Source: a bacterium
GTDB lineage: Bacteria; UBA8248
Length of the DNA: 64,000 nt
Assembly (NCBI GenBank): GCA_965204535.1
Contig: CBDBEV010000001.1
Coordinates: 2,080,001 to 2,144,000, forward strand
Reading direction: 5' to 3'
Shown here: one piece after another, positions 18,354 through 18,439 of the stretch
Position numbering within the stretch: the stretch's first letter is position 1
Layout: each line of letters begins with the position of its first letter
The notes under the pieces: generated by a model
Told to the model about the DNA's origin: nothing
Database searches by the model: none
The model's input: only the letters and a program-made list of their open reading frames with translations
Made by a program: the position numbers and the translations under genes

Positions 18354-18439
18354 CATCCTTGGCGGGACTCGAACCCGCGAGGCTCGTCTAAGCCGCTAGC
18401 TTCCAAGGCTAGTGTGTATACCGATTCCACCACAGGGAT
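18354..18439 (-). tRNA. Atypical tRNA-like gene: Leu-type long-variable-arm body, UGG (Pro) anticodon, no encoded CCA
   Basis: Acceptor AUCCCUG/CAAGGAU (one mismatch); D-arm UGGUGGAAUCGGUAUACAC; anticodon arm CUAGC-CUUGGAA-GCUAG; variable arm GGCU-UAGACG-AGCC; T-arm GCGGG-UUCGAGU-CCCGC; discriminator G. Confidence 0.85.

Follow-up and report, generated by a model that had tools for sequence, protein, structure and literature searches.

The window analysed here, a 64,000-nt stretch of bacterial DNA, contains a type II-C CRISPR-Cas9 locus in which an insert of 747 nt between cas2 and the CRISPR array carries a peptide gene together with a tRNA gene that combines a leucine-type body with a UGG (proline) anticodon. 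At a probability of about 45%, we interpret this insert as a CreTA-like toxin cassette repressed by Cas9, in which the peptide mRNA would form the core and the tRNA would be accessory or fading, not the main toxin. A degenerate repeat would pair with the tracrRNA and direct Cas9 to a 12-nt target in the cassette promoter, where Cas9 would bind without cutting and keep the cassette silent; loss or blocking of Cas9 would free the toxic transcript, as in CreTA/CrePA. The tRNA descends from a family that likely places leucine at CCA codons. We infer transcription and repression of the cassette, PAM use and tRNA charging, as well as toxicity, the last because of the layout.

The minus-strand cas operon (18913..23085) consists of cas9 (20125-23085; 986 aa, with RuvC and HNH motifs), cas1 (19239-20132) and cas2 (18913-19242) in a type II-C layout, and neither csn2 nor cas4 is found in the CRISPR locus of the window. 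On the plus strand lie a tracrRNA (23135..23272) with anti-repeat, hairpins and T tract, and an array of four 36-nt repeats (17881..18114), whose crRNA strand is assigned by tracrRNA pairing. A hairpin followed by a T tract occurs on the plus strand at 18895..18950, overlapping the end of cas2, and again at 18148-18203 after the array, and this duplication flanks the insert. Read along the minus strand, the insert presents a predicted promoter, the 5' arm of a long-range stem (18686..18712, at the predicted transcript start), a strong Shine-Dalgarno sequence (18634-18639), an ORF for a Lys/Pro-rich 36-aa peptide of the KKPGPKTV family (18517..18627, with one CCA codon), the 3' arm (18477..18503) and the tRNA (18354..18439). 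The stem encloses the peptide ORF, and the region folds far better than its shuffles (z -5.2); a weak terminator-like hairpin (18514-18529) lies between peptide and tRNA. A promoter-like TTGTTT-16-TATACT on the plus strand (18292-18319), antisense across the tRNA and the peptide, was noticed by eye and is not in the promoter scan.

The proposed regulator is a scaRNA/CreA-like element on the plus strand (18814..18861), in which a 12-nt guide (18814-18825) abuts a degenerate repeat (18826-18861), joining it exactly as a spacer would. Its target (18728..18747, plus strand) comprises 12 nt (18728-18739) between the -35 and -10 elements and, directly after these, AGAAATCA where a PAM would lie. The promoter concerned, a predicted sigma-70 promoter of the peptide-tRNA transcript (TTGATT-17-TATATT, 18720..18748, minus strand, 9/12 match), is weak when taken alone, as the scan found one where 1.6 were expected by chance. 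For the guide, 1.1e-4 chance matches are expected in the insert (711 nt for this estimate), and the 12-mer occurs three times in 4.56 Mb: in the guide, in the target, and at one site with another flank. A possible divergent promoter for the guide RNA (TTGCAA-17-TAGATT, 18766..18794, plus strand) was picked out by eye with an 8/12 match, under the scanner threshold. In its pairing with the tracrRNA the degenerate repeat comes close to the array repeat (-52.0 vs -53.1 kcal/mol), retaining the lower stem and bulge that characterise scaRNA. Its own tracrRNA is predicted to be a better partner (-47.7) than any of three others compared (-36.9 to -45.8), whereas the corresponding repeat of the related genome G007 has no such preference (-43.5 with its own vs -44.6 to -46.8 with others). 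Two hallmarks of CreTA, namely a degenerate repeat outside the array with a spacer-like guide and a short target in a predicted promoter (12 nt here, 13 nt in G007), are present. The seed could be hidden, however, by pairing of 8 of its 12 letters with the tracrRNA and by a fold of the guide leader onto the repeat. An interpretation of the two 12-mers as transposon ends was rejected, since they are inverted in G007 and direct in the window, and one lies inside the promoter while the other abuts the repeat. No protospacers were found for 139, then 199, spacers of related arrays (own genome and related loci). Array searches across 42 family genomes yielded nothing but repeats, the GenBank phages gave one weak match (E 0.04), and the three window spacers have no match in viral contigs.

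Comparison with relatives bears on which part is the core of the cassette. Among seven loci with a window-type Cas9, five (G002, G009, G014, G015 and G017) have no insert, cas2, hairpin and array following one another directly. The G007 locus, whose Cas9 is 73% and whose peptide is 77% identical, has the long stem, the same seed with a 13-nt guide-target match and a promoter block of 21 identical nt; its arrangement is inverted, with the guide where the window genome has the tRNA, and its cassette has no tRNA. Since G007 has the regulated cassette but no tRNA in it, the peptide mRNA would be the core, and the tRNA is not the indispensable toxin. The initial annotation had proposed a mistranslation toxin or an uncharged decoy; a toxin role gains support from the predicted Cas9-repressed cassette around the tRNA, which that annotation did not include, but an essential role does not agree with the G007 locus. 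In G032, the 3' stem arm is kept upstream of the tRNA and the peptide is absent. The peptide occurs in two of 51 genomes of the phylum, and the regulated cassette in two genomes only, which share ancestry, so that its conservation between them may be a matter of descent. Another reading is that no regulation works at all, the insert being cargo left behind by a mobile element, with a relic in the 12-nt match and a pseudogene in the tRNA; this appears improbable. It would account for the several departures of the window tRNA from its family consensus, the mere four array repeats, the lack of an adjoining transposase and of CCA dependence in the cas genes, and the complementarity of 8 of the 12 seed letters to the window-genome tracrRNA just beyond the anti-repeat. 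However, two genomes whose flanks have diverged and whose arrangements are opposite both retain the guide, the target and the pairing with tracrRNA, and the peptide ORF is intact, with many synonymous differences.

The peptide itself is conserved at 80 loci (70 genome and 10 viral), usually behind a strong Shine-Dalgarno sequence, frequently in IS, prophage or toxin-antitoxin contexts and often near defence or mobile genes, with no cas gene nearby at 79 of them. On its function, Pfam, NCBIfam, PHROGs, PADLOC, plasmids and GenBank phages gave nothing, and its Atlas matches reach only 0.76-0.80. A stem joining the flanks is longer than in all 50 shuffles at 21 of 76 peptide loci. A T arm lies at most 300 nt downstream on the same strand at 10 of 78 loci, compared with 5 of 3982 background windows. 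Five of these ten represent one phage group with a Leu/UGG tRNA and two have other irregular tRNAs; the remaining three look like what we take to be tRNA-Phe 3' halves at integration sites. Behind the L020 peptide stand two irregular tRNAs in tandem, one with an 8-nt loop, and behind that of L059 an irregular tRNA whose Gln-like body bears an enlarged loop; a further peptide locus, L044, has a Ser body with UAU. Since the order of peptide and Leu/UGG tRNA recurs in phage and G032 keeps the tRNA without the peptide, the pair is, judging from gene order, an older mobile unit of which either part can be lost. If the toxin reading holds, the new peptide family is a candidate toxin.

The tRNA gene (18354..18439, minus strand) has the features that were initially ascribed to it: a cloverleaf with D and T arms, a long variable arm (17-nt variable region), the loop CU-UGG-AA, the C5.A68 mismatch, G73 and no encoded CCA; it also has A1-U72 and C48. 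ARAGORN calls tRNA-Pro(tgg) at 18351-18440 on the minus strand, and Rfam RF00005 matches 18354-18439 with 52.8 bits, in the middle of the range (35.9-61.2) covered by 18 of 20 related loci. The body resembles the host's Leu tRNAs most (global alignment scores 51-77), followed by Ser (31-52) and Pro (18-24). An alternative reading with an 8-bp acceptor again places G at the discriminator, followed by CCU. Pro identity comprises A73, G72, G15:C48 and G35-G36-G37 (PMC9976931, Table 1). Outside the anticodon the window tRNA departs from it as had been stated, lacking A73, G72, G15 and G37, with G35 and G36 present. A37 and the missing CCA are likewise real but are not peculiar to this copy, since each is found in 66 of 90 family members, CCA being encoded in 24 of the 90; in the host, CCA is encoded in 47 of 52 tRNA calls. 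It would be conceivable that an ordinary tRNA-Leu or tRNA-Ser acquired this anticodon through faulty sequencing or assembly, as UGG is one base off UAG or UGA and one run differs by 1 nt in a poly-G run near 17833. This can be dismissed almost entirely, and as far as the assembled contigs show it is ruled out. Contigs of runs X1-X3 (two samples of one study, possibly the source of the assembly) have no differences over 18086-18942, and a 151-nt contig (depth 5.3) of X4, from a second study, spans the anticodon without a difference, so that contigs of all four runs agree. UGG is present in 92 distinct relatives, and the host is already equipped with five Leu and four typical Ser tRNAs as well as ordinary tRNA-Pro for UGG, CGG and GGG. 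The X4 contigs also include a related peptide, on one of 859 nt.

The window tRNA belongs by its Leu-type D arm, long arm and YU-UGG-RA loop to a Leu/UGG tRNA family that is defined in this analysis and is not a published one. This family is widespread and rides on IS1595 transposons and phages. A search pattern joining the Leu-type D arm to a YU-UGG-RA loop matched 15 viral loci and 120 metagenome loci, of an estimated 350 or so. Among 51 genomes of the class, exact matches occur in the window genome and G032, and those with one mismatch are a true member (G055), an odd variant (G028) and five ordinary Leu tRNAs. The 139 parsed rows reduce to 126 distinct sequences, of which 92 pass a cloverleaf filter, the 34 left out being truncated, not closing, or with arms overlong for the parser. 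The acceptor stem is perfect in 80 of the 92 and A73 is present in 87; among the 90 with a clear T loop, U48 occurs in 88 and A73 in 85. Changes on both sides of a base pair are seen at 17 of 21 pairs in a hand-picked ten. Of the 93 distinct loci, 35 have an IS1595 transposase (29 of the 56 that measure at least 2 kb), three have the peptide gene, and one has cas genes; this last is the window locus, where no transposase stands next to the tRNA. In an AT-rich phage (L016, L017) the Leu/UGG tRNA runs opposite to the neighbouring genes between promoter-like and terminator-like flanks of its own. More Leu-body tRNAs lie by IS1595-like transposases at L101:8224-8313 (G008) and near 6220 of L315 (G028); an Asp GUC anticodon is found in one of the two and a UC-UGG-GA loop in the other. 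In the window genome, an IS1595 transposase (G000:C2:2515268-2516894) stands between irregular tRNA-like genes (an Arg-like body whose loop has UAC or ACG, a gene that starts like Gln, and a short-armed Ser UGA), with a strong Shine-Dalgarno sequence and a basic mini-ORF of 22 codons directly before the last of them.

Codon use in the linked transposases bears on what this family decodes. An alignment of 27 transposases whose loci bear a tRNA (median identity 43%) has 13 columns with at least six Pro; CCA makes up 55 of 60 Pro codons at five variable columns compared with 2 of 99 at five conserved-Pro columns, although the CCA columns were chosen after inspection of the data and the sequences are akin. 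The dispersion statistic reaches 153, while no more than 42 is attained in 2000 within-sequence shuffles; 26 of the 27 transposases have at least one CCA at the variable columns, and none of 126 Gly, Ala, Thr and Val columns has an A-ending codon fixed to a similar degree. These controls argue against ancestry alone as the cause of the pattern. Because the transposases favour CCA at variable sites and avoid it at conserved prolines, the pattern suggests that the family reads CCA as something other than Pro. The residue is probably Leu, on account of the tRNA identity elements and not of the CCA columns, where the other residues are mixed (Ala, Leu, Lys, Gln and Ser). Miscoding is well supported, from sequence, at the level of the family, since a Pro anticodon is kept on Leu bodies with A73 and U48 and CCA is fixed at sites other than conserved prolines. 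The earlier proposal of Ser or Leu at Pro codons is sustained in its miscoding part, but for the family the likely residue is Leu, not Ser. Within IS1595 the tRNA appears to work for translation of the element itself and not for killing, and the CCA pattern represents sequence evidence for mobile elements with their own decoding rule. Service of the window tRNA to host IS1595 elements in trans was rejected, as none of the three host transposases examined has Pro at the five CCA sites. Recoding of the cas genes was also rejected: CCA accounts for 0 of 39 Pro codons in the window Cas9, and for 0-1 in the Cas9 of five of six tRNA-less relatives too.

Two natural kinds of conflicting tRNA have been described that invite comparison. 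Allo-tRNAs, described together with irregular tRNA polycistrons (PMC5389517), share the long arm, the non-cognate anticodon and a location near toxin-antitoxin or mobile genes, and some are toxic missense suppressors; they differ in having an 8/4 or 9/3 structure and Ser or Ala identity, where the Leu/UGG family has 7/5 and Leu identity, and the codons named in the available text of that report do not include those of Pro. The window tRNA, with a 5-bp T stem and a 7-bp (or 8-bp) acceptor, is not an allo-tRNA. tRNA-ProX (PMC10404621) is likewise a bacterial conflict between body and anticodon and is toxic when expressed in E. coli, but it inserts Pro at codons for Ala, Asn or Thr, and a ProRS of its own often accompanies it. 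The Leu/UGG family would do the reverse, with Leu at Pro codons by means of the host LeuRS, and it travels on IS1595.

Whether the window copy can be charged is a separate matter. Leu identity requires A73, A15:U48, G18G19, A20a and the long arm, Ser identity requires G73, C72, G2-C71, R4-Y69, C11-G24, the long arm and G30-C40, and a change of A73 to G73 can switch Leu to Ser (PMC9976931). The window tRNA has G73 and C48 in place of A73 and A15:U48, and because these Leu elements are lost we infer from the sequence that it is poorly charged. G73 and C48 occur together only in this copy among 90 family members, and its closest relative, in G032, shares C5.A68 and keeps A73 and U48. In the precursor, an 11-bp helix (18344..18477, minus strand) between leader (18467-18477) and trailer (18344-18354) would bury the 3' end of the tRNA; the cloverleaf lies 4 kcal/mol above the best fold, which breaks the acceptor and D stems, and the 3' end is buried in both folds. 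The suggestion that G73 fits Ser holds in that G73 and C48 are the letters of the four typical host tRNA-Ser, but three of the seven Ser determinants are present (G73, the long arm and G30-C40) and four are absent (C72, G2-C71, R4-Y69 and C11-G24). Similarly, the intact arms do exist, yet the copy looks like a weakened allele, with A73 and U48 lost and the 3' end buried. G73, C48 and the intact arms fit a retuning toward Ser as well as decay.

The same evidence bears on an unlikely, though not negligible, alternative in which Cas9 represses the cassette and the tRNA, once matured, contributes actively to the toxin, placing Ser or residual Leu at CCA (perhaps CCG) codons throughout the proteome or recoding the single CCA of the peptide and so altering the activity of the peptide. 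The broader picture that would follow, in which a II-C Cas9 restrains a miscoding-tRNA toxin and its loss or inhibition lets a tRNA of transposon origin insert Ser or Leu at Pro codons and leads to a proteome poisoned together with the peptide, is a long shot to the same degree. Such activity agrees with the intact stems and mid-family Rfam score, with a family that behaves like active CCA decoders, with the Ser-type letters and the switch described above, and with the toxicity of missense allo-tRNAs and tRNA-ProX in E. coli (PMC5389517, PMC10404621). The missing Ser determinants, the unfavourable precursor folds and the tRNA-less cassette of G007 oppose it, and CCA constitutes just 11% of Pro codons in long ORFs. 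The tRNA-linked peptides of the window and the phage have their sole CCA at the same column, which would suit recoding, but that column is mildly CCA-rich in the peptide family generally (18/42 vs 61/292, p=0.003), so that two of two is weak given a base rate of 43%. If true, a miscoding-tRNA toxin under Cas9 would be the first tRNA toxin and the first Cas9 CreTA in the literature searched.

The preferred reading, a Cas9-repressed cassette with a toxic peptide mRNA at its core, draws on two groups of known systems. In the literature considered, it is in type I systems that CRISPR-repressed toxins have been demonstrated. CreTA/CrePA of types I-B and I-F (PMC12737573, 10.1101/2024.01.05.574328) resemble the window in the insert inside the CRISPR locus, the degenerate repeat, the short guide with its match in the promoter of a neighbouring small gene, and the mini-ORF with a strong Shine-Dalgarno sequence. 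In the window the effector is a II-C Cas9 with tracrRNA, there is just one repeat, the putatively toxic cargo combines the conserved 36-aa peptide with a tRNA gene, and the cassette supplies a tRNA, whereas the known CreT RNAs sequester one of the host. Cas9 guides of the scaRNA (Francisella novicida) and tracr-L kind (10.64898/2026.06.01.729453, 10.1101/2023.03.03.530964) share the standalone guide-repeat pairing with tracrRNA, the promoter target and the short seed (an 11-nt guide in tracr-L, repressing without cleavage, and 12-13 nt in the window and G007), but they repress virulence genes or the cas9 promoter and not a peptide-tRNA cassette within the locus. A 2025 review raises the question of CRISPR-repressed toxins in other types. 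No description of a Cas9-repressed toxin cassette, of a tRNA as CreT or of Leu/UGG tRNAs on IS1595 was found in titles and abstract beginnings of mostly non-subscription literature; type II elements of this sort could be among those in the locus tables of the mini-array and scaRNA preprints. If true, type II systems would have, in a Cas9-guarded cassette, their own case of CRISPR addiction and anti-anti-CRISPR defence.

Repression by Cas9 does not by itself imply self-poisoning, and the cargo could be, for instance, an anti-phage or stress effector released upon Cas9 inhibition, which we regard as distinctly unlikely. Diverse defence genes are repressed by CRISPR-like RNAs (10.1101/2024.12.27.630466), and both the defence and mobile surroundings of the peptide and the apparent service of the IS1595 tRNA to translation would accord with such cargo. 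On the other side, mini-ORF CreT RNAs have been described with just this layout, in which a long 5'-3' stem encloses a small ORF with a strong Shine-Dalgarno sequence and a CRISPR-like guide exerts control. Type I toxin mRNAs also have small ORFs with strong Shine-Dalgarno sequences inside a long 5'-3' stem.

Several further observations were made around the locus and elsewhere in the genome. In the window, an AbiEi/AbiEii-like type IV toxin-antitoxin pair with Pfam scores barely above the cut-off (24361-26315) lies 1.1 kb past the tracrRNA, and a short-chain dehydrogenase gene (23424-24208) is present as two overlapping ORFs, possibly frameshifted. A second Cas9 locus (G000:C1:198990-205300 and the start of C2) has a different Cas9 and different repeats, and its Cas9 is preceded by a tracrRNA-like anti-repeat and by cas1 and cas2 of the window type (96-97% identical); its presence on both contigs is possibly an assembly overlap. 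Standalone degenerate copies of the window repeat occur far from cas genes at G000:C1:732873, C2:480315 and C2:468820, and for the two that were tested the 11-nt seed matches nowhere else in the genome. An AT-rich element (17520-17625) at the distal end of the short array has very high contig depth in the runs, and a partial copy of it lies near 12150 (about 12130-12165).
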